Numbered from the stretch's first letter, positions 1 to 23,465 are shown. The stretch: 32,000 nucleotides of DNA from Acaryochloris marina S15 (GCF_018336915.1 NZ_CP064923.1:60001-92000), one strand, 5' to 3'. Program-made: numbers and translations. The notes: a model not told the origin generated them from the sequence alone.

Positions 1-707
1 GCCAATCCGAATTTGTGCGCGTGCCCTATGCCAATGGAACCCTATTCAAACTGCCTGACAGCTTTACGTCGGGTTCAGAAGACCACAAAGCGCTACCGCT
101 GGCAGATAATTTTGCAACTGGATATCATGGCGCCCTTAACTCAAATATTCTCCCTGGCGAAACAGTTGTTGTTATCGGTGACGGAGCGGTGGGACAGAGT
201 GCTGTGATGGCAGCAGCAAAGCTCTTTAATCCTGAGCAGGTTATCCATGTGGGCCGGTACGATAGCCGACTGGAGTTTTCCAAGCAAAAAAGTGGCGCGA
301 CCCATACTGTAAATGGCAAAACCCAAGACCCAATCGAGTATGTGAAGAGCTTGACTAATGGTTACGGCGCCATGTCGATTATTGACACCGTTGGTAATAA
401 AGGATCGATTTCGCAAGCCATGGCGATGGCCCATGCAGGCGGTAAATTGAGCGTGCTTGGGTTTGGGCATCTTTATGAACCTGTAGATGCCCCCTACTCT
501 GATGCTCTATTTAGAAACCTGACTATTCATACAGGCGTCGTGAATGTCGCCGCCTATATGAGGACGCTGCTTCCGATCGTCGAAAACGGGCAGATTGATC
601 CCAGTGTCATCTTTACGGATACCTTGCCACTTGCAGAGGCTAAGCAAGGCTATGACTTAATGATGGGTCGGTCGGCCGGTACAGTCAAAGTTGCGCTTAA
701 GCCCTAA
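1..707 (+). CDS. Zn-dependent alcohol dehydrogenase (MDR) family protein, C-terminal part; the 5' end lies outside the window
   Basis: Frame 3 is open from base 3 (QSEFVRVPYANG...). Rossmann motif VVVIGDGAVGQSAV and an MDR-type C-terminus. Stop at 705-707. Confidence 0.8.
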   Translation, partial: QSEFVRVPYANGTLFKLPDSFTSGSEDHKALPLADNFATGYHGALNSNILPGETVVVIGDGAVGQSAVMAAAKLFNPEQVIHVGRYDSRLEFSKQKSGATHTVNGKTQDPIEYVKSLTNGYGAMSIIDTVGNKGSISQAMAMAHAGGKLSVLGFGHLYEPVDAPYSDALFRNLTIHTGVVNVAAYMRTLLPIVENGQIDPSVIFTDTLPLAEAKQGYDLMMGRSAGTVKVALKP

Positions 708-722
708 TTCGCAGCCAACAGG

Positions 723-1022
723 TTGTCGATGAGTCCAGAAGTGAGAAGTCTTTTGGTTGTTTACTTTAAAGACTTTTCGCTCTGGGAGTTGTGTCAGCAG
801 ACCATGATTGACAGATTCCAGTGTATGAAACAACAAATTTTACACACGCACAAACGCGGACAGGCAGAAGGTACCATGCGAGACGATATCTCAGCTGAGG
901 AACTGGCTGACTTTCTGATCAATAGCTATGAAGGTGCATTACTGAGAATGCAGGTGGAGTAGTCTGTTAAGCCTATTGGACAACTGAGTTCACTCATACG
1001 TCACTATCTAATGAGGGCTTAG
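723..1022 (+). pseudogene. TetR-family regulator, C-terminal ligand-domain remnant; no HTH, and an in-frame TAG at 960-962
   Basis: SPEVRSLLVVYFKDF...RGQAEGTMRDDISAEELADFLINSYEGALLRMQVE matches the usual TetR C-terminal pattern (G.IR.D.dpE.lA.FL....EGA.L). The similarity continues past the stop (SVKPIGQLSSLIRHYL). The fragment begins only 15 nt after the upstream ADH stop and has no N-terminal DNA-binding domain. Confidence 0.6.
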
Positions 1023-1153
1023 AGCGTTCCTTGAATATAGTCGACTGGGTTTAAGAAACAAGGATGACTTCCTCAAATCTAGTTACACCAGTACTGGTAA
1101 AATTTGGCTCTATTTTCAGACGACCAGTCGTTTTAATGAATTAGAAGTTACTC

Positions 1154-1558
1154 ATGAAAAATACACTGAAATGGCGCATTCACGGTGATGAATTTGAGGA
1201 TGGTAGCAAGATGGCGGACTGGAAAAAGATTGAAAGTAGCGCTTGGCATTTTCAAGTTGAAAGTAGCTATGAGATGACATTCGATATCTACGAACATGAT
1301 GGTCAGTTCTGGAAGCTATATCAGGGGCGCTGGGTTGTAGAAGGGATCGCCGAATATACTTATCGATACGGTGGTCAAGCCTGCCGGATGACCCAGGTGG
1401 CTTACACAAAAAAGGCGAGATCCCCCCACTCTGGCCTGCTTAAACAGCGCGGAGATTTGGAGTGGGTGCGGGTTTACGAAGTAAATGAACGCATTCATAA
1501 CGTTGTGAAGACTGGCCTGCCGAATCCAAAGTACAACGGCAAAACTGTCGCGGCCTAA
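1154..1558 (+). CDS. hypothetical protein (134 aa), no family recognised
   Basis: ATG-initiated ORF in the same orientation as its neighbours. No motif I can name. Confidence 0.45.
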   Translation: MKNTLKWRIHGDEFEDGSKMADWKKIESSAWHFQVESSYEMTFDIYEHDGQFWKLYQGRWVVEGIAEYTYRYGGQACRMTQVAYTKKARSPHSGLLKQRGDLEWVRVYEVNERIHNVVKTGLPNPKYNGKTVAA

Positions 1559-1601
1559 ATGGAATTGAAGGCAGTGTTTGGCAAAATCGAGGAGGTGCGC
1601 T

Positions 1602-2336
1602 GTGACAAAACCCATTTGTTTGATTACTGGGGTAGGAGACGGGACGGGAAGTGAGATCGCTCGCAAATTTTCCCAAGGAGGATACCGGGTCGCAATGATA
1701 GCCCGTAATCGAGATCGCCTCCAAATGCTCGAACGAGAACTGCCGCAATCCAAAGCTTATGCTTGTGATATTGGAGATTTAGAGACCCTACTCTCCACCC
1801 TAAAGAAAATTTGCTCAGAGATGGGACATCCTTCTGTCTTGATCCATAATGCTGTTAGCGCTACCTTCGGAAGGTTTCTAGAAGCCGATCCTGAAGATTT
1901 AGAACGCAACTTTCGAGTGAATACAACATCATTGCTTTACCTGGCTCGGGAACTCTCACCATCTATGATTGCAGCCGGCAATGGTGCAATTGTGGTCACG
2001 GGAAATACCGCTGCCTTCAGAGGCATTCCCAGCTATGCCCTATTCGCACCGACCAAGGCTGCACAGCGGGTACTATCGCAAGCGCTTGCCCGTGATTTGG
2101 GGCCAAGGGGTGTTCATGTCGCCTATGTGACCATTGATGCCGCGATCGCTACTCCCTGGTCCAAAAACTTGCCCATTGAAGGGCTCAACATTGGACTATT
2201 GAATCAACAAGAGCGACCCGAAGATTTTTTCTGTCAACCCATTGATATTGCAGAAGAGGTGTTTCATGTGGCCCATCAACCAAGATCAGCTTGGTCTTTT
2301 GATGTGGAAATTCGACCGTTTGGGGAAAAGTGGTAG
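1602..2336 (+). CDS. short-chain dehydrogenase/reductase (SDR) family oxidoreductase
   Basis: TGVGDGTGSEIA (TGxxxGxG) and YALFAPTKAA (YxxxK). GTG at 1602 lies 6 nt after GAGGAGG (1589-1595). The ORF-track start at 1578 is a TTG extension. Confidence 0.85.
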   Translation: MTKPICLITGVGDGTGSEIARKFSQGGYRVAMIARNRDRLQMLERELPQSKAYACDIGDLETLLSTLKKICSEMGHPSVLIHNAVSATFGRFLEADPEDLERNFRVNTTSLLYLARELSPSMIAAGNGAIVVTGNTAAFRGIPSYALFAPTKAAQRVLSQALARDLGPRGVHVAYVTIDAAIATPWSKNLPIEGLNIGLLNQQERPEDFFCQPIDIAEEVFHVAHQPRSAWSFDVEIRPFGEKW

Positions 2337-2390
2337 TTGCCGAGATACTAACAATCTTCCCTTTTGGATCACTTTTCAAATCATTGGCTT

Positions 2391-2436
2391 GCATTTTTTG
2401 GAAACTTGCCTTAGGCTACATACATGTAGATAAGCC
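2391..2436 (+). promoter_or_regulatory. promoter/operator-like repeat, copy R0, containing the near-perfect palindrome CTACATACATGTAG (2416-2429)
   Basis: GCATTTTTTGGAAACTTGCCTTAGGCTACATACATGTAGATAAGCC. It shares the T-run, CTTAG and the CTACATACAT core with R1 and R2. It lies directly 5' of the TetR N-terminal remnant. Confidence 0.5.
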
Positions 2437-2531
2437 ATGAAGGTGTTGCGAACAACACAGTAAGCGACACAAAAACAAAGATCTTAGATGTATTGGAGCG
2501 CTTGACCCAAGCCAAAGGGTTCAATAGCTGA
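2430..2531 (+). pseudogene. TetR-family regulator, N-terminal remnant (about 30 codons, no start codon, ends at TGA 2529-2531)
   Basis: The translation ...DTKTKILDVLERLTQAKGFNS* matches the conserved start of the TetR HTH domain (K.KILD.A..LF...GF). It is bounded by TAG 2427-2429 upstream and is truncated before helices 2 and 3. Confidence 0.5.
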
Positions 2532-2546
2532 CAAATTTTAGAGTTA

Positions 2547-2585
2547 CATTTTTTTGATTTGTTTATCTACATACATATAGGTCAG
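2547..2585 (+). promoter_or_regulatory. promoter/operator-like repeat, copy R1 (T-run, -35 TTGATT 2554-2559, core CTACATACATATAG 2567-2580, -10-like TATAGG 2576-2581)
   Basis: 31/36 identity to R2. 16-nt spacer between the -35-like and -10-like hexamers. 66 nt upstream of the intact NTF2-like gene. Confidence 0.55.
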
Positions 2586-2650
2586 TTTCGGCATATACTT
2601 TATTAGACCGTGATTTTGACCCCCTACCCAAACTCAAGGAGACTAAAACA

Positions 2651-3070
2651 ATGTCAACTGAAACTACACTCAACGTAACCCCCAAAACAGCCGCTGACGA
2701 AGCGCATAGCTTTGCAGAATACAAAGCTGTTGAAGCCGCTTTACAGCCTTATATTGAGTCCGCCAAAACAGGTGACGGCGCGCTTTGCCGGACGGCCTTT
2801 TATGACCACGCTCATATTGTTGGCTCAGTACACGGCACTTTCTATGATTTGGATGCTGACACGTTCCAAGGCGCGGTGAATGAAACAGGCGCATCCCCAG
2901 ACGTTCAGTCTCACATTTCCTGGATTGATATTTCTGGACCTGCCGCATCAGCAAAGGTTGAATTTCTCAATTGGGCTGGTTTCCGTTATACCGATTTCTT
3001 TGTCCTCTATAAGCAGGATGGTCAGTGGAAAATCAGCGGCAAGGTCTACGACTCTCACGCCCAAAATTAA
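2651..3070 (+). CDS. NTF2-like (SnoaL / putative lumazine-binding type) protein, intact copy
   Basis: 139 aa. C-terminus AKVEFLNWAGFRYTDFFVLYKQDGQWKISGKVYDSH is typical of the NTF2-like lumazine-binding-2 type fold. AGGAG lies upstream of the ATG. Confidence 0.7.
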   Translation: MSTETTLNVTPKTAADEAHSFAEYKAVEAALQPYIESAKTGDGALCRTAFYDHAHIVGSVHGTFYDLDADTFQGAVNETGASPDVQSHISWIDISGPAASAKVEFLNWAGFRYTDFFVLYKQDGQWKISGKVYDSHAQN

Positions 3071-3158
3071 TCATGTATGCACAGGCACTGGTAAGTGACT
3101 GCACGCTTTGCCTGTGTAGGTTTCGTCTTAAATAGAATTTCAACAACAGGAGGAAAAT

Positions 3159-3593
3159 ATGTCAGCGTCTGTACCGCCCTCAATTGCACCCAAAAGAATT
3201 CTCTATACAATGCTTCGGGTCAGCGATCTGGATAGATCGATTGCGTTCTATCACAATATGCTTGGCATGTCCGAGTTGGGACGTGAAACCTTTCCCGATG
3301 CCGAATTTACCGCTGTCTTTATGGGATACGGAAATCGAAAAACCGATGCGGTCATAGAGATAACCTATAACTGGGACAAGCGTAGCTACGAGCATGGTAC
3401 AGCCTACGGAAATCTCTCTCTTGCCGTAGACGATGTCTATGCATTGACAGCTTATCTCGAAGAGAACGGTGTGAAGGTCTTGCGCCCCGCAGGAGAAGTA
3501 CCAATGGTGTCAACTGAAACAGGTGAGAAGCACACGTTAGCATTTATTGCTGACCCCGATGGTTACCGCATTGAACTCATGCAAACTGCTTGA
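3159..3593 (+). CDS. gloA: lactoylglutathione lyase (glyoxalase I)
   Basis: ILYTMLRVSDLDRSIAFYHNMLGM...IEITYNWD...YEHGTAYGNLSLAVDD...AFIADPDGYRIELMQ. VOC-fold GloA pattern. AGGAGGA RBS. Confidence 0.85.
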   Translation: MSASVPPSIAPKRILYTMLRVSDLDRSIAFYHNMLGMSELGRETFPDAEFTAVFMGYGNRKTDAVIEITYNWDKRSYEHGTAYGNLSLAVDDVYALTAYLEENGVKVLRPAGEVPMVSTETGEKHTLAFIADPDGYRIELMQTA

Positions 3594-3657
3594 CTTTTAC
3601 CCAGATTTTCAACCATTCAAAAGATAAAAATTACCCAATCTAAAAAGGAAAAAGAAC

Positions 3658-4119
3658 ATGACTTCTTTGACCAGAACAGTTACTGCTGAAGCCTTTGAAT
3701 CAGTGGCATCTGGACAACTCGGCTTTACGAATATGGTCGATTACGGCATTACATTGCCAGAGCTTGCTTCCGGCACAACGCCCCCGCCGCAAGGCGCCCG
3801 TTTTGACTTAACCCTTGAGGGGCAACTTACAGGCCCGATTACAGGCAAGATGATTGCTACGGACTATATTAATGTGCGTGCTGACGGCCGATTTGAACTC
3901 AACATGTTTGGGCAAATCACCACCACAGATGGCGCACAGATTTCATTTGAAGGCCATGGGGTATCGGTCCATAAATCTGACGGGACTGAAGGCGTACGTA
4001 TGTCTGTAAAGCTAGTGACTCAATCCAGTGAGTATGCATGGGTAAACGGCGTTACTTTTATCGCTGAAGGGATTGTTGACTCGGCAGCTAACACGTTAGC
4101 AATGTCTCTACTCAGATAA
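3658..4119 (+). CDS. DUF3237-like beta-barrel protein (hypothetical)
   Basis: The pattern G.RF.L.LEG.LTGP..GK...DY...RADGR..L......TTDGA.I...G...EYAWVNGVTFIAEG resembles the DUF3237/UPF0311 family. Confidence 0.5.
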   Translation: MTSLTRTVTAEAFESVASGQLGFTNMVDYGITLPELASGTTPPPQGARFDLTLEGQLTGPITGKMIATDYINVRADGRFELNMFGQITTTDGAQISFEGHGVSVHKSDGTEGVRMSVKLVTQSSEYAWVNGVTFIAEGIVDSAANTLAMSLLR

Positions 4120-4163
4120 GAAAACGTACTGCTGAACGGTGGAGAGACATCTCACGCCAGCCA

Positions 4164-4205
4164 ACTTTTTTTTGACTTAGCTATCAACATACATATAGGT
4201 CAGCC
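4164..4205 (+). promoter_or_regulatory. promoter/operator-like repeat, copy R2 (T8 run, -35 TTGACT 4172-4177, core CAACATACATATAG 4185-4198, -10-like TATAGG 4194-4199)
   Basis: TTTTTTGACTTAGCTATCAACATACATATAGGTCAG. The geometry matches R1. It lies upstream of the peroxiredoxin-like gene. Confidence 0.55.
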
Positions 4206-4353
4206 AAGGTTGTTGTCAAGCCGCGACCTCAAACTGCCCAATTCTCGAAGCAGGGGTAGACAACAATCAATTGTTCGATTCCCTTTTTCAATTTACTGCG
4301 CTGATTTTTTATCAGCACTTGACCACACTATTTATCAATTTGGAGACATCACA

Positions 4354-4908
4354 ATGACTGTAACGACAACTACACCAGCAACAACTTCCGCTATTCGTTT
4401 AGTTCCTGGCAACAACGTCCCTGCGTTGACCATTGATACGCTATCTGGCAATGCTTGGAATCTTGCGGCTCAAACCCCTCGTAACTACACGATGGTGGTC
4501 TTCTATCGGGGATTGCACTGCCCCCTCTGTGCTGAGTACTTAAAGCAGCTGAACAGTAAGCTCAGTCAGTTTCACGATCTCGGTATTGAAGTGATTGCCA
4601 TTAGTGGTGACACTCGCGAGAAAGCTGCTAATTCATCTGAAACCTGGGGTGTAAAAGATTTGACACTGGGCTATGGCCTCACCCGTGAAGCGATGCAGCA
4701 GTGGGGGCTTTATGTCTCCAAGGGTGCATTTGACTATGAGCCAGCCTATTTCAATGAACCAGGACTCTTTTTGATTGGCCCTGACGGCGTGCTTTTCTTC
4801 GCGAGTATTAATAACGCGCCCTATGGTCGTACTGACCTAGATGCACTGCTCGGCGGTATGGACTTTGTCTTGAACAACAACTACCCCGTGCGTGGTACTG
4901 AGGTCTAA
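4354..4908 (+). CDS. thioredoxin-fold peroxiredoxin-like (AhpC/TSA family) protein
   Basis: VVFYRGLHCPLCAEYLKQL carries a CxxC-type redox motif in an AhpC/TSA-like context. ATG 4354 is preceded by GGAGA. The 48-codon upstream extension in the ORF track shows no homology and covers the promoter-like repeat. Confidence 0.7.
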   Translation: MTVTTTTPATTSAIRLVPGNNVPALTIDTLSGNAWNLAAQTPRNYTMVVFYRGLHCPLCAEYLKQLNSKLSQFHDLGIEVIAISGDTREKAANSSETWGVKDLTLGYGLTREAMQQWGLYVSKGAFDYEPAYFNEPGLFLIGPDGVLFFASINNAPYGRTDLDALLGGMDFVLNNNYPVRGTEV

Positions 4909-4956
4909 AAGAAAGAAAGCTCTTCCCCTATTCCAACAATACAACGGAGAAAAATC

Positions 4957-5208
4957 ATGCCTTTTGTAAATGTTCGCACAACCAAAGGAATGCTGACTAA
5001 GGATCAGAAACAAGAGCTTCAAGAGCGTCTGAACGCCTTAATGGTTGAGATTGAAGGGGGTGGTGACCCAACCTTCAAAGACAAGGTCTGGATCATGATT
5101 GAGGAGACCGAGCCTGAGGACTGGAATATCGGAGGGGTCACGCTAACCCCTGACATCATCCAAGAACTCAAACGCCAACAGGCTCCCAAAAGTAAAGGAA
5201 AATCCTAG
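4957..5208 (+). CDS. 4-oxalocrotonate tautomerase family protein
   Basis: 83 aa starting MPFVNVRT (catalytic Pro1 after Met removal), with a beta-alpha-beta tautomerase-like pattern. GGAGAAAAATC precedes the ATG. Confidence 0.7.
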   Translation: MPFVNVRTTKGMLTKDQKQELQERLNALMVEIEGGGDPTFKDKVWIMIEETEPEDWNIGGVTLTPDIIQELKRQQAPKSKGKS

Positions 5209-5221
5209 ACTGCACGCTTAA

Positions 5222-5263
5222 GGATGTGCGATCGCAAAGTATGGGGTAGCGCTTCTACCCCAT
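5222..5263 (+). promoter_or_regulatory. degenerate copy (RA) of the same element, with hairpin GGGGTAG-CGCTT-CTACCCC (5243-5261)
   Basis: GTATGGGGTAGCG aligns with ATATAGGTCAGCC of R2. The stretch 5222-5280 is 48/59 identical, ungapped, to 7523-7581. Confidence 0.4.
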
Positions 5264-5413
5264 GTGATTAATTTTGAAATTTCTGGATCTGCCGCTGTTG
5301 CAAAGGTTGAATTTATTAACTGGGGCGGCTTCCGAGACTTCTCTGTCCTCTACAAGCACAACGGAGAATGGAAAATCAGCGGCCAGGTCTTCGATGCTCA
5401 TACCCAAAACTAA
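5264..5413 (+). pseudogene. NTF2-like gene 3' remnant (copy A, about 49 codons)
   Basis: VINFEISGSAAVAKVEFINWGGFRDFSVLYKHNGEWKISGQVFDAHTQN* aligns with residues 91-139 of the intact copy at 2651-3070. The N-terminal two thirds are absent. Confidence 0.75.
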
Positions 5414-5562
5414 GTTTTCTCTATCCACTGCCTCTAAGTCGCGCAGTCTAAACCGTAGATAACATTGACTTTGTATTGGTGCCAGACGCGTAAACGAGCA
5501 TTCCAAATAGTCAAGCGCACTCGAAATAACAACCTAACTCAACACCCTAACCAGGAAAAAAG

Positions 5563-6255
5563 ATGACTTACGACAACGTGTTTAAAAAATGGCCTGCACA
5601 GCACCCTGAGAGAATTCAGCTGTATTCTCTCGGAACGCCCAACGGTCAAAAAATTTCCATTGCGCTAGAAGAAATGGCCCTGCCCTATGAGGCCCATCGC
5701 ATTGAGATTATGAAAGATGACCAGTTCACCGATGAGTTCATTGCCATTAACCCCAATTCCAAAATCCCAGCCATCATCGATCCAAATGGGCCAAACAATG
5801 AACCTTTTGCTGTCTTCGAGTCCGGTGCCATTTTGATGTATCTGGCAGAGAAGTCAGGGAAATTTCTCCCCACCGATCCGGCAGCCCGCAGTGAGTGTTT
5901 GCAATGGTTGTTTTTCCAAATGGGAGGTGTCGGCCCCATGTTTGGACAGTTTGGACATTTCCACACGTTTGCCAAGGAAAAAGTTCCCTATGCCATTGAG
6001 CGCTATCGCAACGAAGCTCGACGGTTGTTAACCGTCCTGGATAAGCAACTATCAGAAAAACCTTTTCTCATAGGAGACGCGTATTCCATTGCAGATATGG
6101 CGACATTTCCTTGGGTAGGCACATTGGATTGGGCTTACAAAGCAGCTGAATCGTTGCAGCTTCACCAAGACTTTCCGAATGTTATGACCTGGTATGAGCG
6201 CTGTCGGCAACGGCCTGCGGCGGTTCGTGGACTAGCCGTAACGAAAATCAATTAA
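5563..6255 (+). CDS. glutathione S-transferase, YfcG/YghU-like (Nu-class-like)
   Basis: LYSLGTPNGQKISIALEEMALPYE...INPNSKIPAIIDPNG...FESGAILMYLAEKSGKFLP closely follows the E. coli YfcG-type N-terminal pattern. Confidence 0.8.
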   Translation: MTYDNVFKKWPAQHPERIQLYSLGTPNGQKISIALEEMALPYEAHRIEIMKDDQFTDEFIAINPNSKIPAIIDPNGPNNEPFAVFESGAILMYLAEKSGKFLPTDPAARSECLQWLFFQMGGVGPMFGQFGHFHTFAKEKVPYAIERYRNEARRLLTVLDKQLSEKPFLIGDAYSIADMATFPWVGTLDWAYKAAESLQLHQDFPNVMTWYERCRQRPAAVRGLAVTKIN

Positions 6256-6389
6256 CAACGAACTGATTGAGCACGCTGTAAATTCGCTCTAATCAATCAT
6301 CGGATGGCACTCCTAATCCTTGCAGAGCTTTGACTCTATACTCAAGCTCGAATCAATCACTTGTTCATTTATTTAACCCACGGACTCCC

Positions 6390-7502
6390 ATGACTCAAAC
6401 GAACGTTCCTCATCTTCTTAGTTCTCTAGAAACAAAAGATCTAACCTTTCGAAATCGGATTGTGATGGCCCCGCTGACTCGTTCTCGATCGGGTGCGGAA
6501 AGAATACCAAACGCGCTGATGGCTGAGTACTATGCTCAGCGGGCTGGAGCGGGCCTCATCATTACAGAAGGTACTACCATCTCACCCCAGGCGAACGGTT
6601 GGCTCAATTCTCCCGGTATCTATACAGAAGCCCAAACCCAAGCCTGGAAGCAGGTTGTAGATGCGGTACATGCCCAAAATGGGTTGATCTTTTTGCAGCT
6701 TTGGCACACGGGTCGAGCGTCTCATCGTGACTTTCAAGTGAATAATCAACTTCCAGTGGGGCCATCAGCAGTCGGATTAGAAGGCTCAGAGGTACATACT
6801 CCCAAGGGGAAACAACTCTACGAGACCCCGAGGGCATTAGAGACTGCCGAAATCCCTAACGTGATCGAGGACTACCGACAAGCCGCTGCTAACGCTAAGC
6901 AAGCGGGCTTTGATGGCGTAGAGATCCATGGGGCCAATGGCTATTTGATTGACGAATTTCTACAGTCTAAGACCAATCACCGCACAGATCTGTATGGCGG
7001 TAGTTTAGAGAATCGCTTTCGGTTCTTAAAAGAAATCACTGAAGCGGTTCTGACTGTTTGGCCTGCTAGTCGTGTCGGAGTCAGGCTCTCGCCCAATGGC
7101 GTCTTCAACGATATGGGATCACCCGATTATCGGGAGACCTTTACTTATGTTGCTGAGCAGCTTAATACTTACAACCTAGGCTATTTGCATATCCTTGACG
7201 GTTTAGCGTTTGGCTTTCATGAGCTTGGAGAGCCAATGACACTGGCTGAAATTAGAAAGGTTTACAGCAATACACTGATGGGGAACTGTGGGTACGATCG
7301 CAATTCAGCAGAGTCTGCAATTGTATCTGGCGATGCGGCTCTGATTGCCTTTGGCCGCTCTTATATCAGCAATCCAGATCTTGTGGATCGTTTTGCCCAT
7401 AATTGGGAGCTGAATGCTGACTCTGATCCATCTACCTGGTACTCCTTTGAGGCTGAAGGATATACCGACTTCCCGACCTATCAAGTCTCTCAGGTTGTTT
7501 GA
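6390..7502 (+). CDS. Old Yellow Enzyme family NAD(P)H:flavin oxidoreductase (alkene / N-ethylmaleimide reductase-like)
   Basis: RNRIVMAPLTRSR, LWHTGRASH and HGANGYLIDEFL are OYE hallmarks. ATG at 6390; the track's 6330 start is a TTG extension. Confidence 0.85.
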   Translation: MTQTNVPHLLSSLETKDLTFRNRIVMAPLTRSRSGAERIPNALMAEYYAQRAGAGLIITEGTTISPQANGWLNSPGIYTEAQTQAWKQVVDAVHAQNGLIFLQLWHTGRASHRDFQVNNQLPVGPSAVGLEGSEVHTPKGKQLYETPRALETAEIPNVIEDYRQAAANAKQAGFDGVEIHGANGYLIDEFLQSKTNHRTDLYGGSLENRFRFLKEITEAVLTVWPASRVGVRLSPNGVFNDMGSPDYRETFTYVAEQLNTYNLGYLHILDGLAFGFHELGEPMTLAEIRKVYSNTLMGNCGYDRNSAESAIVSGDAALIAFGRSYISNPDLVDRFAHNWELNADSDPSTWYSFEAEGYTDFPTYQVSQVV

Positions 7503-7513
7503 CTTGAGCCATA

Positions 7514-7564
7514 GCATTTTTTGGATGTGCTTTAGCAACGTGTTGGGTAGCCCTTCTACCTAAC
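7514..7564 (+). promoter_or_regulatory. degenerate copy (RB) of the same element, with hairpin GGTAG-CCCTT-CTACC (7546-7560)
   Basis: GCATTTTTTGGATGTGCTTTAGCAACGTGTTGGGTAGCCC. The 5' part matches R0 and R3 (GCATTTTTT), and ATGTGCTTT matches the segment just 3' of R3. It lacks the CTACAT core. Confidence 0.4.
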
Positions 7565-7594
7565 GTGATTAATTCTGAAATAAAGAGATTAGCA

Positions 7595-8566
7595 ATGGCA
7601 AATATGCAAGCAGCTGTGTTGACGGCATTGGGTGGTCCCGAAGGGTTTGAGATCCAGCAGATCCCCAAACCTGTACCAAAAGCCAATCAGATCTTAGTCC
7701 GCGTCTATGCAACGTCTATCAATCCTGTTGATTATCAAACCCGTCGGGGTGACTATAAAGACTATGTGCAACTCCCAGCAGTTATTGGTCTTGATGTGTC
7801 TGGGGTTGTTGAGGCCGTGGGAGAAACCGTAACCGCCTTTAAGCCAGGAGATGAAGTCTATTACGCGCCTAGAATTTTTGAAGATGCGGGTAGCTATGCT
7901 CAATACAATGTTGTTGATGAGAGCCTGGTTGCGATTAAGCCCAAAAATCTATCCCATACTGAAGCAGCGTGTTTTCCCATAGCAGGTGGAACCGCTTGGG
8001 AGTCCCTGTTTACTAGGGCAAATCTCCAGGTAGGTGAATCTGTTTTGATTCATGCGGGCGCAGGTGGCGTTGGGTCTTTAGCCATCCAATTAGCGAAAGC
8101 GATAGGTGCCTACGTGTTCACAACCTGTAGCCCTAGAAATCATGATTTGGTTACGAAACTGGGCGCGGACCATGTGATTGACTATACAACGGAAGACTAT
8201 GTAGAAGTCATTCAGCGAGAAACAGACAATCAAGGCGTTGATGTCGTCTTTGATACGATTGGCGGCAAGACGATTCAACAAAGTTTCGAGATTCTTCGCC
8301 CTTATGGTCGCCTTGTTAGCATCGTCGACATTGAAACGCCGCAATCTTTGCTCGCCGCTTGGGATCGAAATCTATCTGTCCATTTTGTTTTTAACCCAGT
8401 TAATTCAGCGAAGCTAGATGCCCTAAGGCAGCTTATTGAACGCGAACAGCTAAAACCAGTTATTGACTCAATCATGCCGTGGCAACAGGTGAGTCAAGCC
8501 ATCCAACGATTAGAACAAGGCGGAACAACAGGAAAGATTGTGCTGGATTTTGCTGATGATAATTAG
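7595..8566 (+). CDS. NADPH:quinone oxidoreductase-like zinc-binding dehydrogenase (MDR)
   Basis: MQAAVL...GGPEGFEIQQIPKP...VRVYATSINPVDY...HAGAGGVGSLAIQLAK. The start is ATG 7595 or 7604. The in-frame GTG 7565 extension is derived from an NTF2 remnant. Confidence 0.8.
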   Translation: MANMQAAVLTALGGPEGFEIQQIPKPVPKANQILVRVYATSINPVDYQTRRGDYKDYVQLPAVIGLDVSGVVEAVGETVTAFKPGDEVYYAPRIFEDAGSYAQYNVVDESLVAIKPKNLSHTEAACFPIAGGTAWESLFTRANLQVGESVLIHAGAGGVGSLAIQLAKAIGAYVFTTCSPRNHDLVTKLGADHVIDYTTEDYVEVIQRETDNQGVDVVFDTIGGKTIQQSFEILRPYGRLVSIVDIETPQSLLAAWDRNLSVHFVFNPVNSAKLDALRQLIEREQLKPVIDSIMPWQQVSQAIQRLEQGGTTGKIVLDFADDN

Positions 8567-8650
8567 CTTAACAATGCCTGCTGCAACCCTGCCTGAACTT
8601 ATACGAGCACGGCATTTTCTATATTTGTCAAAATAGAAGGTACAAAAGTC

Positions 8651-9115
8651 ATGAAAATCAGGCTACTCGTCCTAGCAGGCCTATTGTTTGCAGCTATGCT
8701 TTTGCCCATCACTGCGAGCAATGCCCATACTGTAAAGAGGTTGAAAGATCGCGACGCTGTAGCGATTGAAACAGTAATTTTCGATTATTTTGAAGGAAAC
8801 GGTACAGCAGATCGAGATCGGCTTGGCGCTGCTTTCCATGAAGACCTCGCCGTAATGGTAGGTATCATTAAGTCAGAGAATGGAACTCTCGAACGTCGTG
8901 CCTGGCACGATATGCCCGCTCTGCTAGATGCATGGGCAGCGGTCGAGAATCCTCCTGGTACGGGACGGGACGGCGAAGTTCTGCACATTCAAACAGTCGA
9001 TGGACGGATCGCAACTGCCCTCTTTCGCTACACAGATGAATTTTATGATGCCTTTACATTGCTAAAGCACGATGGCCAATGGAAGATCGCTAGCAAGGCA
9101 TTCATCGAACAATAA
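8651..9115 (+). CDS. NTF2-like protein with N-terminal signal peptide (distant paralogue of 2651-3070)
   Basis: MKIRLLVLAGLLFAAMLLPITASNA is a signal-like N-terminus. The C-terminus is FTLLKHDGQWKIASKAF. Confidence 0.6.
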   Translation: MKIRLLVLAGLLFAAMLLPITASNAHTVKRLKDRDAVAIETVIFDYFEGNGTADRDRLGAAFHEDLAVMVGIIKSENGTLERRAWHDMPALLDAWAAVENPPGTGRDGEVLHIQTVDGRIATALFRYTDEFYDAFTLLKHDGQWKIASKAFIEQ

Positions 9116-9152
9116 ATTTCAATCGAATAGAAAATGTAATTGGAGAATGATC

Positions 9153-9896
9153 ATGTCTCAAAATATTGATGGGAAAGTCGTTGTTATTACTGGTGCCAGC
9201 AGTGGCCTAGGAGAATCAACAGCTCGTCATTTAGCCTCGTTGGGCGCGAAGGTCGTGTTGGGAGCACGCCGCACAGAGAAATTAGAACGCATCACCCAAG
9301 AGATCCGCGACAGTGGGGGACAGGCTGAATTTTTGACCACAGATGTTACCGTTGCTAGCGATTTAAAGGCACTCGTTGAGAAAGCGATCGCAGCTTTCGG
9401 TCAAGTCGATGTCATTATCAACAATGCTGGATTGATGGCGATTGCTCCCATGTCAGAGACGAAAACTGACGAATGGGATCGCATGATTGATATCAACATT
9501 AAAGGCGTTCTATACGGTATTGCAGCGGCCTTACCCATCTTTGAAAGACAGGGCAGTGGACACTTTATCAACATTTCTTCTGTTGCTGGAGTGAAGGTAT
9601 TTAGTCCCGGTGGTGCGGTCTACAGTGGCACTAAATTTGCTGTGAGAGCAATTTCTGAAGGATTAAGGCATGAAGTGGGTGGCAAGATCAGAACAACCAC
9701 TATTGAGCCAGGTGCTGTAGATTCTGATCTAAAACACGGTAGTTCACATCAGGAAAGCTCGGACTTTGTGAAAGATTTTTATCAGATTGCAATTCCTGCT
9801 GACTCTGTTGCGCGTGCTATTGCCTACGCCATTGAACAACCTGCAGATATAGATATCAATGAGCTTGTCTTACGGCCAACCGTACAAGATTTCTAA
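9153..9896 (+). CDS. SDR family oxidoreductase
   Basis: VVVITGASSGLGE, NNAG and YSGTKFAV motifs. GGAG lies 7 nt upstream of ATG 9153. The 9072 start would overlap the preceding gene. Confidence 0.85.
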   Translation: MSQNIDGKVVVITGASSGLGESTARHLASLGAKVVLGARRTEKLERITQEIRDSGGQAEFLTTDVTVASDLKALVEKAIAAFGQVDVIINNAGLMAIAPMSETKTDEWDRMIDINIKGVLYGIAAALPIFERQGSGHFINISSVAGVKVFSPGGAVYSGTKFAVRAISEGLRHEVGGKIRTTTIEPGAVDSDLKHGSSHQESSDFVKDFYQIAIPADSVARAIAYAIEQPADIDINELVLRPTVQDF

Positions 9897-9935
9897 ACCG
9901 GTTCTAGTTTGAGAACTAGAAGTAGATGACAGTTT

Positions 9936-9978
9936 GCATTTTTTTAGCGACTTTATCTACATCTGCAGGTTGGCTCAG
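9936..9978 (+). promoter_or_regulatory. promoter/operator-like repeat, copy R3 (diverged)
   Basis: GCATTTTTTTAGCGACTTTATCTACATCTGCAGGTTGGCTCAG. It shares CATTTTTTT and TTTATCTACAT with R1. It is followed by NTF2 remnant C and the YahK-like ADH. Confidence 0.45.
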
Positions 9979-10011
9979 TATGTGCTTTCTCAAAAGCCAA
10001 CCTAAAAAACT

Positions 10012-10113
10012 AACTGGGATAGCTTCCACTTCATAGACTTCTTTGTTCTCTACAAGCACTGCAGCCAGCGGGAAATCAGTGGTAAGGCCTACGAGTCTCA
10101 CACCCAAAACTAA
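10012..10113 (+). pseudogene. NTF2-like gene 3' remnant (copy C, about 33 codons)
   Basis: NWDSFHFIDFFVLYKHCSQREISGKAYESHTQN* aligns with NWAGFRYTDFFVLYKQDGQWKISGKVYDSHAQN* of the intact copy. An in-frame TAA sits just upstream at 10003-10005. Confidence 0.7.
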
Positions 10114-10148
10114 GTTTTATCTATCTACTATTTCTAATAGGAGAACCC

Positions 10149-11171
10149 ATGACGACAGCATCCATGATTAGAGCTTATGCTGCTGCCGAGGTCGGCGGTA
10201 ATCTAACGCCATTTGAGTACAAGCCAGATCCACTAAAGGATACAGATGTTGAGATCGATGTTGAGTATTGTGGCCTTTGCCACAGCGATCTGAGTATGTT
10301 GGACAACGAATGGGGAATTACCCAATATCCCTTTGTTCCTGGTCATGAAGTGATTGGACGAGTGGCTAAGCTCGGTTCTGCGGTTAAATCTCTTCACGTT
10401 GGCCAGCAAGTGGGCTTGGGATGGTTTTCCAGTTCTTGTATGACCTGTGAATGGTGTCTTTCTGGGAATCACAATCTTTGCCCCAGCCGAGAAGAAACCA
10501 TCGTTAATCGACATGGCGGTTTTGCGGATAAGGTGCGCGCCCATGAAGTATGGACTGTTCCTCTCCCTGAAGGGATTGATGCGGTCAAAGCAGGTCCCCT
10601 ATTCTGTGGCGGCATTACTGTTTTTAATCCCCTTATTCAGTTGGGAATACAGCCAACAGACAAAGTTGGGGTCATTGGCATTGGTGGATTGGGGCATATG
10701 GCACTAAAGTTCTTGCGTGCTTGGGGGTGTGAAGTCACCGCTTTTTCATCGAGTCCTGAAAAAACGGCTGAAGCAAAAGCGATGGGGGCGCATTATGTTG
10801 TCAACTCACGTGAGCCTGACGCACTGAAAGCGGTCGCCAATTCCTTTGATGTGATTCTTTCTACCGTCAGCGCCGATTTAGACTGGAGCATTTATATCGA
10901 GGCCCTGCGTCCTCAAGGCAAGATCCACTTTGTTGGCATCCCACCCTCCCCTTTGAGTACCTCCTTATTTTCGATTATTGATGCACAGCGGTCGGTGTCA
11001 GGATCACCGTTGGGCAGTCCGGCAACCGTGCAGAAAATGCTCAATTTTTCTCAACGTCACAGCATTGAACCCGTTATTGAAACGTTTCCCTTTAGCCAAG
11101 TCAATGAAGCCATAGACCGGCTCCGTCACGGGAAGCCACGTTATCGGATTGTATTAGTACCAGACTCATAG
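10149..11171 (+). CDS. NAD(P)-dependent alcohol/aldehyde reductase, cinnamyl-alcohol-dehydrogenase (YahK/AdhC-like) subfamily
   Basis: CGLCHSDLSMLDNEWG...PFVPGHEVIGRV, structural zinc cysteines CMTCEWCLSGNHNLC, and GIGGLGHMALKF. AGGAGAA RBS. Confidence 0.85.
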   Translation: MTTASMIRAYAAAEVGGNLTPFEYKPDPLKDTDVEIDVEYCGLCHSDLSMLDNEWGITQYPFVPGHEVIGRVAKLGSAVKSLHVGQQVGLGWFSSSCMTCEWCLSGNHNLCPSREETIVNRHGGFADKVRAHEVWTVPLPEGIDAVKAGPLFCGGITVFNPLIQLGIQPTDKVGVIGIGGLGHMALKFLRAWGCEVTAFSSSPEKTAEAKAMGAHYVVNSREPDALKAVANSFDVILSTVSADLDWSIYIEALRPQGKIHFVGIPPSPLSTSLFSIIDAQRSVSGSPLGSPATVQKMLNFSQRHSIEPVIETFPFSQVNEAIDRLRHGKPRYRIVLVPDS

Positions 11172-11215
11172 CGTTGGATGGAGTACAGGACTAGGACGAC
11201 CTAAAAATGCTATTT

Positions 11216-12820
11216 CTATGGACTATCGTCGTTAGGAGTCGGGGCGGTAGGGGTAGGCGGCGGCACCGGAATCACAACGGGAGATTGTATCGGCGATGGC
11301 TCTGGACTAGGGCTGAGAGTTGGTTCTTCTGGCTGTGTGGGGTCTGGGCTGGGACTGGGGTCCGGCTCTAATGTAGGTTCAGGTGGTTCCGTGGGGGTGG
11401 GAGTGGGTGCAGGGCGCTCCAAGTCTGCAATTTTGCGTTTGGCTGCGAAGTAGATGGGATCGGCTCGCCTATCCCAGTAAGGATTTTGGGGCAATTTAAA
11501 CGCTAAGTCTCGGGCAACATACCAGCGTTTACCATCAAAGGCTGTTTTAGCACGATTGAATAGGTCTTGTTGTTGTTGCCATGTCGTTTGCCAGGTCTGG
11601 ACTTGGGTTTGGGCGGCTTCAGCACTGTCGCTGTTGCTGGGGATTTGGTTTGCGATCGCAATTGCTGCATCTAAATCCCCAGACTGTCGCGCTTCTTGCT
11701 GAGCCTGCTCTAGGAGCGTCGCACCATTATCTACATTGGCGACCGGTTGGAGAAACGGGAATAGTTCATCCGTTACTCCCCAGTAGGTGAGGCCAACCAT
11801 GCCTAAACCCATGACCAAGGCCATAGCGCCGAAGCCGAACACCCAGGGGGCACAGCCTGAAGATTTCGCGACCGGCGGGGATGGGCGCTGCTGTGGACGG
11901 GGGGGGGTGGGTGTGGCAACGACTTGGGTGGGTTCTATGGCTGATATTGCTGGTTCTACGGGAGGTGTGAAGGGTTTAGGAGAGGGCTGTACGGAGGTTT
12001 GATCGATGGTCTGATGGAGTGCTTGTAAAGCATCAGCAGCAGTTTGGTAGCGCAATTTAAAATAGGGGCGCACCATTTGAGTAAGGACCTGGGCCAATTC
12101 ATCACTCACCGCCGCCTGATCTCGCCAAACTAGCTCGCCGTCTACATCTTCTTGGAATTGGGAGGGGGGTCTGCCCGTCAGGGCCTGAATACCGATAATT
12201 CCGAGAGAATACAGGTCGCTATTGGGACGCGGCTTCCCTTGGCTTTGCTCACTGGCCATATATCCGGGGGTGCCCACGACCACGGTGATATTGGTTTGTG
12301 GATTAGTGACTAGGCCTTGATTGCGCACCTGTTTGACCGACCCAAAGTCGACCAAGACCAGCTTCTGATCGGCTCGGCGACGGATAATATTCTCAGGTTT
12401 AATATCGCGATGAATCACCCCTTGGCCATGAATAAATTCCAAGACTTCGAGCACTTCGGACAGCAGCGATTGCACCTGCGACTCTGGCCATTGTTCTCCC
12501 GCCGCCAGTTCATCCGTGAGGGGAGCCCCATCAATCAGTTCTTGGACGAGGAAAAAGTCTTGATCTTGCTCAAAGAAGGCGAGTAGCCGGGGAATTTGAT
12601 GGTGGTGGCCTAACTGTTCTAAGGTTTCCGCTTCACTGCGGAATAGGCGACGAGCCACTTCCAAAAACTCTGGATCGCTGCTAGCGGGCTGCAGCAATTT
12701 AACCACACAAGACGGATTGCCGGGGCGTCTTGTATCCTCAGCAATATAGGTTTGTCCAAAGCCTCCTTCCCCGAGAGACTGTACGATGCGATAACGCCCA
12801 TCCAACGTTTGCCCAATCAT
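11216..12820 (-). CDS. membrane-anchored Ser/Thr protein kinase (Hanks type) with an extracytoplasmic domain and a Pro-rich tail
   Basis: GEGGFGQTY, VVKLL, HRDIKPENI, DFGSVK and GTPGYMASE. A TM segment (PWVFGFGAMALVMGLGMVGLTYWGV) is followed by about 150 aa and a P/T/S/E-rich C-terminus. Confidence 0.85.
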   Translation of the reverse strand: MIGQTLDGRYRIVQSLGEGGFGQTYIAEDTRRPGNPSCVVKLLQPASSDPEFLEVARRLFRSEAETLEQLGHHHQIPRLLAFFEQDQDFFLVQELIDGAPLTDELAAGEQWPESQVQSLLSEVLEVLEFIHGQGVIHRDIKPENIIRRRADQKLVLVDFGSVKQVRNQGLVTNPQTNITVVVGTPGYMASEQSQGKPRPNSDLYSLGIIGIQALTGRPPSQFQEDVDGELVWRDQAAVSDELAQVLTQMVRPYFKLRYQTAADALQALHQTIDQTSVQPSPKPFTPPVEPAISAIEPTQVVATPTPPRPQQRPSPPVAKSSGCAPWVFGFGAMALVMGLGMVGLTYWGVTDELFPFLQPVANVDNGATLLEQAQQEARQSGDLDAAIAIANQIPSNSDSAEAAQTQVQTWQTTWQQQQDLFNRAKTAFDGKRWYVARDLAFKLPQNPYWDRRADPIYFAAKRKIADLERPAPTPTPTEPPEPTLEPDPSPSPDPTQPEEPTLSPSPEPSPIQSPVVIPVPPPTPTAPTPNDDSP

Positions 12821-14501: not shown

Positions 14502-14545
14502 ACTATCCCTGAGTGCAAGTGAGACTATCTCTGAGTGCAAGTGAG
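14502..14545. repeat. 22-bp tandem direct repeat, two copies (ACTATCYCTGAGTGCAAGTGAG), preceded by a weaker third copy and the palindrome GGATAGTTATCC (14477-14488)
   Basis: Units 14502-14523 and 14524-14545 differ at one position. They lie 60-100 nt upstream of the 128-aa minus-strand gene. Confidence 0.9.
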
Positions 14546-14728: not shown

Positions 14729-16171
14729 TTACTGCTCATCCATGACATCCATTTGAGGTGGAGCATGATCGGCAGAGGTCTCTAGTCCCAAGCGTTTTTC
14801 TCGTAATTTCAACAAGATCTCGGCATGCACTTCCCGTGAAATGGGATAGAAATAGGCCAGCAGTAAGCCAATCAATAAAATTAAGGTGGGGAGGGGGCCA
14901 ATGGCAATCCGAATCGCTAGTAGGGCTGAATCGGGCTGTACCGGCAGTGCTTGCCCCGGCGTTGAGGAAATAAATCCGGTATTTTCCAAGGCGATTCCGA
15001 CGACAAATAGGCCCAATGCCAGACCCATTTTTTGGAGTAGCACCATAAACGCATAAAAGATGCCTTCCCGGCGCTCGCCTGTTTTCAGCTCATCTAGCTC
15101 AATCACATCAGGCAGCATGGACCAAGGAATCAGATAGGCGGTGGCTACCCCTACACCGGCCATCATACTCAGTAAATATAGACCGACAATCTGGCCGGGT
15201 TGGAGAAAGAATAACCCGCTTTGGGCAATAATCCACAGGGACATGCCCATGAAATAAACCATTCGCTTGCCGATTCTCTCACTGACATTGCTCCATACAA
15301 ACAACATGACGATGGCGACGACTTGAACGAGCAGGGCGACCTGAAAATAGGCATCCTGCTTCATCCAACTCGTGACGTAATAAGGAATAATGGCAGCCGT
15401 AAGTTGAAAGGCTAGCCAGGAACACATATAAATGCCAATGACGAATAAAAATGGGCGGTTAGATAACGCTATTTTTACCTGTTCCAGAACGGGCATGGCT
15501 TCAGGTATTTCAGCGGTATAGCGTTCTTCCGTTCCCCACACGCACCAATAGATGGGTAAGACCGATAAAATTGCACATCCTAGACCAATGACAAAATATT
15601 GCTGGCTGGGATCTTCGACCCATTGAGAGATGAGTATACCTAGTACCAAAGCTAGGATACTCCCACCGATGGAGAAGGCAAATCGAAAGCTGTTTAGACT
15701 GGTCCGTTCGTTATAATCCTGGGTTAATTCAGGTGTGAGGGCTGTATAGGGTAAATTCACCGCAGTGAATGCGATGTTAAAAAACACAGCAATCAGCGTG
15801 TAGTAAATAAATAAACCCCATTGATTGATCTCCGCATTGGCGGAAAAGTGAGGCACAACCCACTGCAAGACAAAAAATAAACCGAAGGGAATGGATCCAA
15901 ATAGCATCCAAGAATGACGGCGTCCCCACCGAGATTTTGTCCGATCGCTTAAGACCCCAATGATGGGATCGTTAATGGCATCACTGATTTTGCCAATTAA
16001 GAGAACAGTTCCTGCTAGACCTGGATTGAGACCAGCCACATTGGTGAGAAAGATGAGTAGCGAAAAAACCAGGAGTGTAGCCGTAATTCCTGGCCCCATA
16101 TCTCCTGCACCATAGGCCAACTTGGTCTTGAAACTTAATTTTCCAGAATCGGGAGATATGGGGTCATTCAT
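14729..16171 (-). CDS. MFS transporter, glycoside-pentoside-hexuronide (GPH):cation symporter family (MelB-like)
   Basis: KLAYGAGDMG...GKISDAINDPIIGVLSDRTKSRWGRRHSWMLFGSIPFG is the GPH signature region. Roughly 12 hydrophobic segments. Confidence 0.8.
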   Translation of the reverse strand: MNDPISPDSGKLSFKTKLAYGAGDMGPGITATLLVFSLLIFLTNVAGLNPGLAGTVLLIGKISDAINDPIIGVLSDRTKSRWGRRHSWMLFGSIPFGLFFVLQWVVPHFSANAEINQWGLFIYYTLIAVFFNIAFTAVNLPYTALTPELTQDYNERTSLNSFRFAFSIGGSILALVLGILISQWVEDPSQQYFVIGLGCAILSVLPIYWCVWGTEERYTAEIPEAMPVLEQVKIALSNRPFLFVIGIYMCSWLAFQLTAAIIPYYVTSWMKQDAYFQVALLVQVVAIVMLFVWSNVSERIGKRMVYFMGMSLWIIAQSGLFFLQPGQIVGLYLLSMMAGVGVATAYLIPWSMLPDVIELDELKTGERREGIFYAFMVLLQKMGLALGLFVVGIALENTGFISSTPGQALPVQPDSALLAIRIAIGPLPTLILLIGLLLAYFYPISREVHAEILLKLREKRLGLETSADHAPPQMDVMDEQ

Positions 16172-23402: not shown

Positions 23403-23421
23403 GGTGCGGTCTGCAGCAAAT

Positions 23422-23465
23422 AGTCCGGCTGGAAGAGAAAAAAAGTCCGACTGGAAGAGAAAAGG
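23422..23465. repeat. 22-bp tandem direct repeat (AGTCCGRCTGGAAGAGAAAARR); candidate binding site for the adjacent AraC-family regulator
   Basis: Units 23422-23443 and 23444-23465 differ at 3 positions. They lie between the AraC stop (23402) and the receptor start (23575). Confidence 0.85.

Follow-up and report, generated by a model that had tools for sequence, protein, structure and literature searches.

Has the gene array at the left end of a 32,000-nucleotide stretch of Acaryochloris marina S15 DNA lost the repressor that controlled it? The stretch (NZ_CP064923.1:60001-92000), called the window below, carries at positions 1-11171 a series of electrophile and carbonyl detoxification genes interspersed with broken pieces of TetR-family repressor genes. 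A first-pass annotation of the window likened this array to the E. coli nemR-nemA-gloA operon and proposed that its local repressor had decayed. That would be a neat case of regulatory decay if true, but it fails once the sequence to the left of the window is examined. We believe, with a probability of roughly 0.7, that the array belongs to a strain-variable electrophile/carbonyl detoxification regulon under two TetR repressors of the NemR superfamily, here TetR_A and TetR_B, and that this regulon grew by module duplication.

Oxygenic phototrophs generate lipid-derived carbonyls, and to our knowledge their reactive-electrophile defences are poorly mapped. We found no paper on this island, on the TetR_B operator, or on PF12893 in such a context. 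The analysis yields a testable regulon model for cyanobacterial reactive-electrophile defence and, for an uncharacterised TetR subfamily, a predicted operator that is conserved in several phyla. It also offers a putative example of regulon growth in which whole regulator-plus-promoter modules are duplicated and the spare regulators then discarded, and it assigns NTF2a and orf134, both conserved proteins of unknown function, to a defined regulatory setting.

Two repressors to the left of the window

Positions 1-11171 make up the right two thirds of an island on the chromosome that measures ~16 kb and has ~19 intact genes. The island occupies a slot with a sulfotransferase gene on one side and a Ser/Thr kinase gene on the other (flanking genes are NdhH, methyltransferase and sulfotransferase on the left, and kinase, binding protein, MFS and XseAB on the right). 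We reconstructed the left flank from two Logan contigs, L004 and L082, both of sample SRR12447961, which is the same strain. L004 and L003 of that sample are 100% identical to the window; L004 covers 1-2773 and runs 2.87 kb further left. There it carries an intact TetR_A gene (P0019) on the other strand and, beyond it, an AhpD-like CMD gene and NTF2a', a second copy of the NTF2a gene. L082 was reached via P0151, a shorter Logan gene call of the TetR_B protein P0034, and holds the sulfotransferase gene, then an intact TetR_B, an FMN azoreductase-like gene and the start of NTF2a'. Joining the two contigs via NTF2a' agrees with the GenBank numbering, in which TetR_B is QUY42796, TetR_A is QUY42800 and a fragment inside the window is QUY42802. 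The decay of the local repressor is mainly a window-edge artefact, because intact copies of both types adjoin the window on its left: same-strain contigs and accession order place TetR_A 1.2 kb and TetR_B ~4 kb from base 1.

P0019 (QUY42800) is 196 amino acids (aa) long and lies about 1.2-1.8 kb left of base 1. It has the domains PF00440 (TetR_N, 4.7e-13) and PF16925 (TetR_C_13, 3.7e-15) and aligns with E. coli NemR over its full length (residues 9-183, 31% identity, E = 3e-24; PDB 4yze, E = 4e-21). The full-length similarity and an equivalent of NemR Cys106 suggest that it is NemR-like. Its best NCBIfam match is AcuR, at 137 bits against a cut-off of 247, and the TetR family structure 3bru is among its top matches in PDB. 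P0034 (WP_212663946, QUY42796) is 177 aa long, is the first gene of the island, some 4.0-4.6 kb to the left of base 1, and has PF00440, PF21993 and PF16925 (precomputed); we retrieved it with the full-length TetR_B of a close relative, the metagenome-assembled genome (MAG) L011. When the NemR-like subgroup of TetR/AcrR proteins is defined by TetR_N plus TetR_C_13 in an intact protein, P0019 and P0034, both outside the window, belong to it and the fragments inside the window do not.

The sensor cysteine is invariant in an alignment of 44 sequences, made up of 39 TetR_B, 4 TetR_A and E. coli NemR (TetR_B Cys97, P0019 Cys105, NemR Cys106), and TetR_B has a CxC motif at this position. In the work cited in PMC3739934, as far as that account goes, NemR Cys106 suffices for the HOCl response and other cysteines serve electrophiles. 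Taken together, the invariant cysteine and this work make thiol-based release of both TetR_A and TetR_B plausible. The signal would likely be thiol modification by electrophiles or oxidants at the Cys106 equivalent, upon which the repressor would leave its site.

The TetR fragments first seen in the window are real, but they are not halves of one gene. The piece at 708-1028 is a C-part of TetR_A and the piece at ~2448-2531 an N-part of TetR_B. The proposed genome search for one intact paralogue matching both came up empty, and no single paralogue can match both because they belong to two different TetR types. No database protein matched both fragments, and the concatenated query matched via its C-terminal part only; the TetR_B stub alone found no database protein sharing three 5-mers and no near-identical protein. 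Over its last ~76 residues the remnant at 708-1028 shares 63% identity with aa 119-194 of P0019; its first ~25 are similar to aa 103-127 of TetR_B (against TetR_B aa 103-176 the identity is 28%, 27 of 98 aligned positions). Its closest full-length homologues are 196 aa long. We suggest that it is a hybrid TetR_B-like/TetR_A junction. The open reading frame at 729-962 is the 77-aa QUY42802 on the 5,881,945-bp chromosome of A. marina S15.

The other end of this broken gene lies outside the window. Upstream of ADH1 and in frame, L004 carries codons 1-45 of a NemR-like TetR gene, interrupted by two stops (MTRPKRSENI*EKLL*..GYHGTG..VPKGS). ADH1, an alcohol dehydrogenase gene, sits exactly between TetR_A codons 1-45 and 119-194, and the disrupted locus spans about -545 to 1028. 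The N-fragment is preceded by a near-consensus promoter with two boxes, TTGACG..ATGACTGGTCATATAAT and TCTAGACGACCGGTCATATAG. Since ADH1 is inserted between the N- and C-parts of one NemR-like gene, it inherits this two-box promoter. By tblastn, the TetR_B stub matches the N-terminal ends of TetR_B genes that precede NTF2a homologues at many loci. S15 has lost two TetR_B copies; one is cut to ~27 codons and the second is gone completely.

Predicted operators and the genes behind them

The repeated dyad of the first-pass annotation holds up. CTACATACATRTAG occurs at 2416, 2567 and 4185, which gives 4 matches against 0.23 expected, one palindromic site among the three being counted on both strands. 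We predict that the 20-bp palindrome TATCTACATACATGTAGATA is the TetR_B operator. Among 34 tblastn hits to TetR_B, a figure that includes cyanobacterial copies and split hits, 21 have their best dyad match (at most 3 mismatches) beginning 29-33 nt before the start codon, in otherwise unrelated sequence. The dyad consensus, CTATCTACATACATGTAGATAA, has a left arm that also serves as the -10 hexamer. A position weight matrix (PWM) trained only on 18 non-cyanobacterial sites upstream of TetR_B genes finds six sites above 16 bits in a 41-kb S15 composite, at -4597, -3996, -3126, 2412, 2563 and 4181. All six are intergenic and in the island, three of them within the window. No match of at least 12 bits occurs in the other ~21 kb of the window; shuffled sequence gives 0.45 such matches per 32 kb. 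A layout with an operator ahead of TetR_B and another ahead of NTF2a is found again in Alpha-, Gamma- and Deltaproteobacteria; the second site is present in most foreign loci and was not among the training sites. The window operator before NTF2a (O2') is the counterpart of this intergenic site, which is conserved across phyla, and the one before the stub (O1') would be the former autoregulatory site of the deleted TetR_B copy. TetR_B itself would bind TATCTACATACATGTAGATA, overlapping the -10, at all six promoters.

TetR_A appears to use a different box. In TetR_A promoters AGACGACYGGTCATAT overlaps the promoter; it resembles the E. coli nemR box TAGACCGACTGGTCTA, which has the same place in the nemR promoter. 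Ahead of orf134 homologues stands AAGACGACYRGTCRTAT, and both boxes are conserved in three independent loci (L005, L008 and L083). In the S15 locus the NemR-box-like site AGAYGACYRGTCRT, with the core GACYRGTC, is found only at -571 and -549, before ADH1, and at 1122, before orf134-SDR1. The last of these is the only such site in 1-11171; the core is matched once more, at 15697, outside the array, and the box scan found none in 2337-11171. This distribution is why TetR_A probably controls ADH1 and orf134-SDR1, and not OYE or GloA. The predicted P0019 target sequence is AGACGACCGGTCATAT, and TetR_A would bind the NemR-box-like AYGACYRGTCRT at the two sites before ADH1 and the one before orf134-SDR1.

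An operator of the TetR_B type precedes GloA. OYE is preceded by a terminator-like hairpin and by no recognisable operator. The last three units (GST-OYE, QOR-NTF2b-SDR2 and ADH2) may be reached by read-through from upstream or may be constitutive. A simple scan for sigma-70 and terminator consensus gave totals not above those of shuffled sequence, and from it we keep only two homologous hairpins, as weak evidence. They lie in the D3 elements, 59 bp at 5222-5280 and 7523-7581, which are 81% identical and hold a GC-rich hairpin each. We reject the reading of the array as a single operon, given several promoter/operator sites and these two internal hairpins. The spacers, described earlier as short, are so at eight junctions (37-134 bp); the other five run to 234-446 bp and contain pseudogene debris, operators or hairpins.

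It is important to ask how far the analogy with nemR-nemA-gloA goes. The parts are alike: P0019 matches NemR over its full length and has the Cys106 equivalent, the core of its box is like TAGACCGACTGGTCTA and overlaps a sigma-70-type promoter, and the island has a NemA-like OYE (46%) and a GloA (45%), so the comparison was well drawn. The palindromic box overlapping a promoter is thus present by sequence. The arrangement is not that of E. coli, where the repressor is co-transcribed with, and controls, nemA and gloA. The TetR_A boxes of S15 precede ADH and orf134-SDR1 and not OYE or GloA, GloA lies behind an operator of the second, more distant type, and OYE is without a recognisable one. The S15 repressor is not an operon leader; it is on the opposite strand, away from the first detoxification gene. 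There are ~19 genes in many transcription units in S15 compared with 3 in E. coli.

Three other systems invite comparison. The acrylate-responsive AcuR-AcuI regulon of Rhodobacter resembles the island in that AcuR is the best NCBIfam match of P0019 and in that an MDR reductase detoxifies a marine electrophile, acrylate. P0019 is, however, far below the AcuR cut-off, the S15 QOR scores 51 bits against the AcuI model with its cut-off of 440, and the island has no dddL-type gene. Cyanobacterial TetR_A-orf134-...-SDR modules (A. marina MBIC11017 pREB2, an Acaryochloris-like contig and Leptothoe) share the gene order and the box pair, but in S15 the TetR_A of the module is interrupted by ADH1 and has stop codons, and the intact P0019 is an extra copy upstream on the other strand. 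The TetR_B-NTF2a(-AhpD-like) modules of marine Proteobacteria and related MAGs have TetR_B upstream of NTF2a, the two-operator layout and the shared cargo set. They usually have one regulator and 2-7 genes, whereas in S15 six promoters bear an operator, two extra TetR_B copies have left remnants and a second repressor type lies nested within.

Proposed growth of the island and the alternatives

A scan of species-representative genomes found NTF2a at 63 loci, 60-77% identical, in Cyanobacteria, Alpha-, Gamma- and Deltaproteobacteria, Bacteroidota and others. A TetR_B gene of 175-177 aa is directly upstream in 24/63 loci, and an AhpD-like CMD gene follows NTF2a in 20/63. The cargo further downstream (CMD, ADH1-like, QOR, GloA, GST, OYE, SDR) is the same enzyme set as in S15. 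The conservation of NTF2a suggests a specific catalytic or binding role together with horizontal spread. A plasmid copy was sought in PLSDB, where a DNA search with 2337-3160 gave no match and tblastn with TetR_B found relatives all below 60% identity, about 33-36% among the matches listed. The module is therefore not on known A. marina plasmids.

The first pass had asked whether the array is accessory and whether relatives keep the regulator, and comparison of strains shows a variable island and relatives that keep a TetR_B. The locus has internal repeats and differs by indels from two relatives. In L073 (SRR12447965) the island occupies the same slot in the chromosome and begins with a single TetR_B; TetR_A, ADH1, 4-OT, OYE and NTF2b are missing. 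The S15 segments absent there are -3141 to 657 (NTF2a'-CMD-TetR_A-ADH1), 4912 to 7536 (4-OT, NTF2a pseudogene, GST, OYE) and NTF2b. The final 50 bp of ADH1 are still present in L073, and this gene was therefore probably lost there. L073 shares the TetR_B stub with its two operators (2389-2585), which is therefore older than the split of these strains. The segment 4912-7536, with its S15-specific NTF2a pseudogene, GST and OYE, is bordered by the two D3 repeats, and MAG L011 aligns to both D3 copies at a single place, between 4-OT and QOR. L011 keeps a full TetR_B-NTF2a pair with two operators before ADH2. At that place S15 has 106 bp in which half an operator is left, along with the final 33 codons of NTF2a. 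Nearby, 9837-9855 (the 3' end of SDR2) and 9954-9972 (the degenerate operator remnant) form a 19-nt inverted repeat with 95% complementarity, and the RNA fold of 9897-10010 has z = -3.4; the repeat may be the scar of the deletion that removed TetR_B there, or a terminator. As a separate observation, the L011 TetR_B before NTF2a (9354-9886) matches in two frames, aa 1-52 and aa 54-177, a pattern that means either a pseudogene with a frameshift or a mistake in the assembly.

The breakpoints lie within TetR, NTF2a and operator sequence, and there is no integrase, transposase or recombinase among the Pfam-called genes of the island or of its 10-kb flanks on both sides. This favours recombination between paralogous modules over cassette capture. 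The island would have grown by duplication and recombination of TetR-headed modules, and spare regulator copies would then have been deleted or disrupted, leaving the fragments in the window. The fallback offered in the first pass, a multi-promoter regulon built by module duplication, fits the six TetR_B operators, the internal repeats and the remnants.

How does this regulon model stand against other explanations? Constitutive derepression of the array, in full or at least distally, after loss of its local repressor strikes us as improbable, but it has some evidence behind it. The three TetR remnants are real, the full TetR_B and two operators of L011 have been replaced in S15 as described, and the TetR_B PWM finds no site of at least 12 bits before GST-OYE, QOR-NTF2b-SDR2 or ADH2. 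Yet intact copies of both repressors stand in the same strain 4 kb and 1.2 kb from the window, and the window itself still has three strong TetR_B operators and a TetR_A box. Applied to the array as a whole, the claim stems from where the window ends. What decay is left is a real loss of redundant regulator copies, and it concerns the distal units, which may no longer be regulated. We give still less credit to the idea that the dyad is a promoter that was duplicated, or is bound by a different regulator, with its link to TetR_B due to hitch-hiking. The S15 copies are part of larger duplicated segments, so repetition within this genome alone proves little. But in several phyla the palindrome has been kept before genes for TetR_B proteins with only 55-68% identity, amid flanks that are not conserved, and the near-fixed distance to the start codon with a second copy after the gene is a typical sign of TetR autoregulation. 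That the array is integron-like, or a mobile cassette array of another kind whose co-orientation comes from site-specific capture of cassettes, seems to us very unlikely indeed. In its favour, the genes share one orientation, are accessory and vary between strains, and intergenic elements are repeated. But with no integrase among the called genes of the island and its 10-kb flanks, and with boundaries inside coding sequence, we reject the integron reading. The repeats are promoters, operators and gene fragments and not attC-like sites (no dedicated attC model was run), and junctions inside TetR and NTF2a coding sequence point to homologous or illegitimate recombination.

Several points weigh against the two-repressor regulon that we prefer. 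TetR_B is only about 22-23% identical to NemR and P0019, with NemR over the N-terminal 124 aligned positions (residues 3-117), and the closest solved structures to it are uncharacterised proteins. The promoter of P0019 has only a degenerate half box, TAGCGTTCCTGGTCATATACT (L004 3960-3990, window about -1190), and P0019 may not be autoregulated. GST-OYE, QOR-NTF2b-SDR2 and ADH2 are without a recognisable operator, and part of the array may be outside either regulon. The L082-L004 join spans a 42-bp gap inside NTF2a' and is drawn from accession order and from differences to the window NTF2a. Repressor function, inducers and operator occupancy are things we infer from sequence.

A broader scenario is tentative, and we would sooner bet against it than for it. 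TetR_B, the 20-bp palindrome and the NTF2-like protein might be an undescribed electrophile-defence module, horizontally mobile among marine Cyanobacteria, Proteobacteria and other phyla. Operator promoters and NTF2a and TetR coding sequences might serve as portable homology patches by which reductase cargo is added, giving a hypervariable two-repressor island. ADH1 would then have captured the autoregulated promoter of a broken repressor, and the NTF2-like protein and orf134 could be new detoxification enzymes or sensors.

Genes of the array and minor features

Gene content was typed by Pfam and NCBIfam profiles. All 13 listed types of the first-pass annotation are confirmed, with orf134 as an unlisted addition, and all genes in 1-11171 are on the + strand, in keeping with the co-orientation that it described. 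Coordinates are given in Table 1.

Table 1. Features of the island in window coordinates; negative positions lie left of base 1, and the first column gives the place in the island order.
Place	Feature	Position	Strand	Remarks
1	TetR_B, intact	about -4561 to -4028
2	FMN azoreductase-like			Flavodoxin_2
3	NTF2a'			second NTF2a copy
4	AhpD-like			CMD
5	TetR_A (P0019), intact	-1803 to -1213	opposite
6	TetR_A N-part pseudogene
6	ADH1, MDR Zn-dependent alcohol dehydrogenase	1-707	+	Pfam ADH_zinc_N; last 234 codons in window; full gene on L004, ATG at -378
6	TetR pseudogene remnant	708-1028	+	TetR_C_13 match; in-frame TAG at 960-962
	NemR-box-like candidate TetR_A operator	1118-1133	.	AGACGACCAGTCGTTT; 21 nt upstream of orf134
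7	orf134	1154-1558	+	conserved small all-beta protein of unknown function
7	SDR1, short-chain dehydrogenase	1602-2336	+	Pfam adh_short; gene model from L004
	predicted TetR_B promoter/operator O1'	2389-2433, operator 2412-2433	+	TTGCAT-17 nt-TAGGCT; PWM 24.3 bits; exact dyad CTACATACATGTAG
8	TetR_B pseudogene, first ~27 codons	2448-2531	+	translation ..NTVSDTKTKILDVLERLTQAKGFNS* (also written ..DTKTKILDVLERLTQAKGFNS*), * being a stop
	predicted TetR_B promoter/operator O2' before NTF2a	2544-2585, operator 2563-2584	+	PWM 29.7 bits
9	NTF2a, NTF2-like, 139 aa	2651-3070	+	Pfam Lumazine_bd_2; signature partner of TetR_B
9	GloA, glyoxalase I	3159-3593	+	Pfam Glyoxalase; 45% identical to E. coli GloA
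9	DUF3237 protein	3658-4119	+	Pfam
	predicted TetR_B promoter/operator before Prx-4-OT	4162-4203, operator 4181-4202	+	PWM 24.8 bits; 85% repeat of 2546-2585
10	Prx-like, peroxiredoxin-like (AhpC/TSA)	4354-4908	+	Pfam; 184-aa gene model
10	4-OT, 4-oxalocrotonate tautomerase family	4957-5208	+	Pfam Tautomerase
	terminator-like hairpin, repeat D3 copy 1	5239-5265	+	after 4-OT
11	NTF2a pseudogene fragment, aa 88-139	5261-5413	+	before GST; tblastn 63% identity, E = 3.5e-18
11	GST (YghU/YfcG-like)	5563-6255	+	Pfam GST_N/C; NCBIfam PRK11752 248 bits, below cut-off
11	OYE, Old Yellow Enzyme (NemA-like)	6390-7502	+	Pfam Oxidored_FMN 7e-80; 46% identical to E. coli NemA
	terminator-like hairpin, repeat D3 copy 2	7539-7567	+	after OYE
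12	QOR, quinone oxidoreductase-like MDR	7595-8566	+	Pfam, NCBIfam
12	NTF2b, second Lumazine_bd_2 protein	8651-9115	+	Pfam; 33% identical to NTF2a
12	SDR2, short-chain dehydrogenase	9153-9896	+	Pfam; 247-aa gene model
	degenerate TetR_B promoter/operator remnant	9934-9972	+	repeat D5, dyad remnant ~9952; left half-site TATCTACAT kept, right half replaced; PWM <8 bits
13	NTF2a pseudogene fragment, aa 107-139	10012-10113	+	before ADH2; tblastn 61% identity; L011 has full NTF2a there
13	ADH2, Ahr-type NADPH-dependent aldehyde reductase	10149-11171	+	NCBIfam AldhRedAhr (NF047908)

Some assignments sit close to, or below, the subfamily cut-offs. GloA scores 119.2 bits against TIGR00068, whose cut-off is 120. 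OYE is below the cut-off of the N-ethylmaleimide reductase subfamily PRK10605 (362.5 vs 403 bits) and is still a clear Old Yellow Enzyme. ADH2 passes the Ahr model (524 bits, cut-off 470). The N-terminus of NTF2b, MKIRLLVLAGLLFAAMLLPITASNA, is signal-peptide-like, and this protein may be exported, unlike the rest of the array.

The orf134 product has no Pfam or NCBIfam match, and its family is rare, with 40 representatives among 1.84 billion. Cys77, His92 and His115 are invariant, as are the motifs GGxACR and SPHS. The AlphaFold2 (AF2) model is all-beta and confident (pLDDT 88), and a fold search with it against PDB gave no significant match. Its gene always stands directly after a NemR-like TetR, with its own box.

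An Rfam scan of 1-12000 found no RNA family. Outside the array, the window has 22-bp tandem repeats of two copies each at 14502-14545 and 23418-23463.

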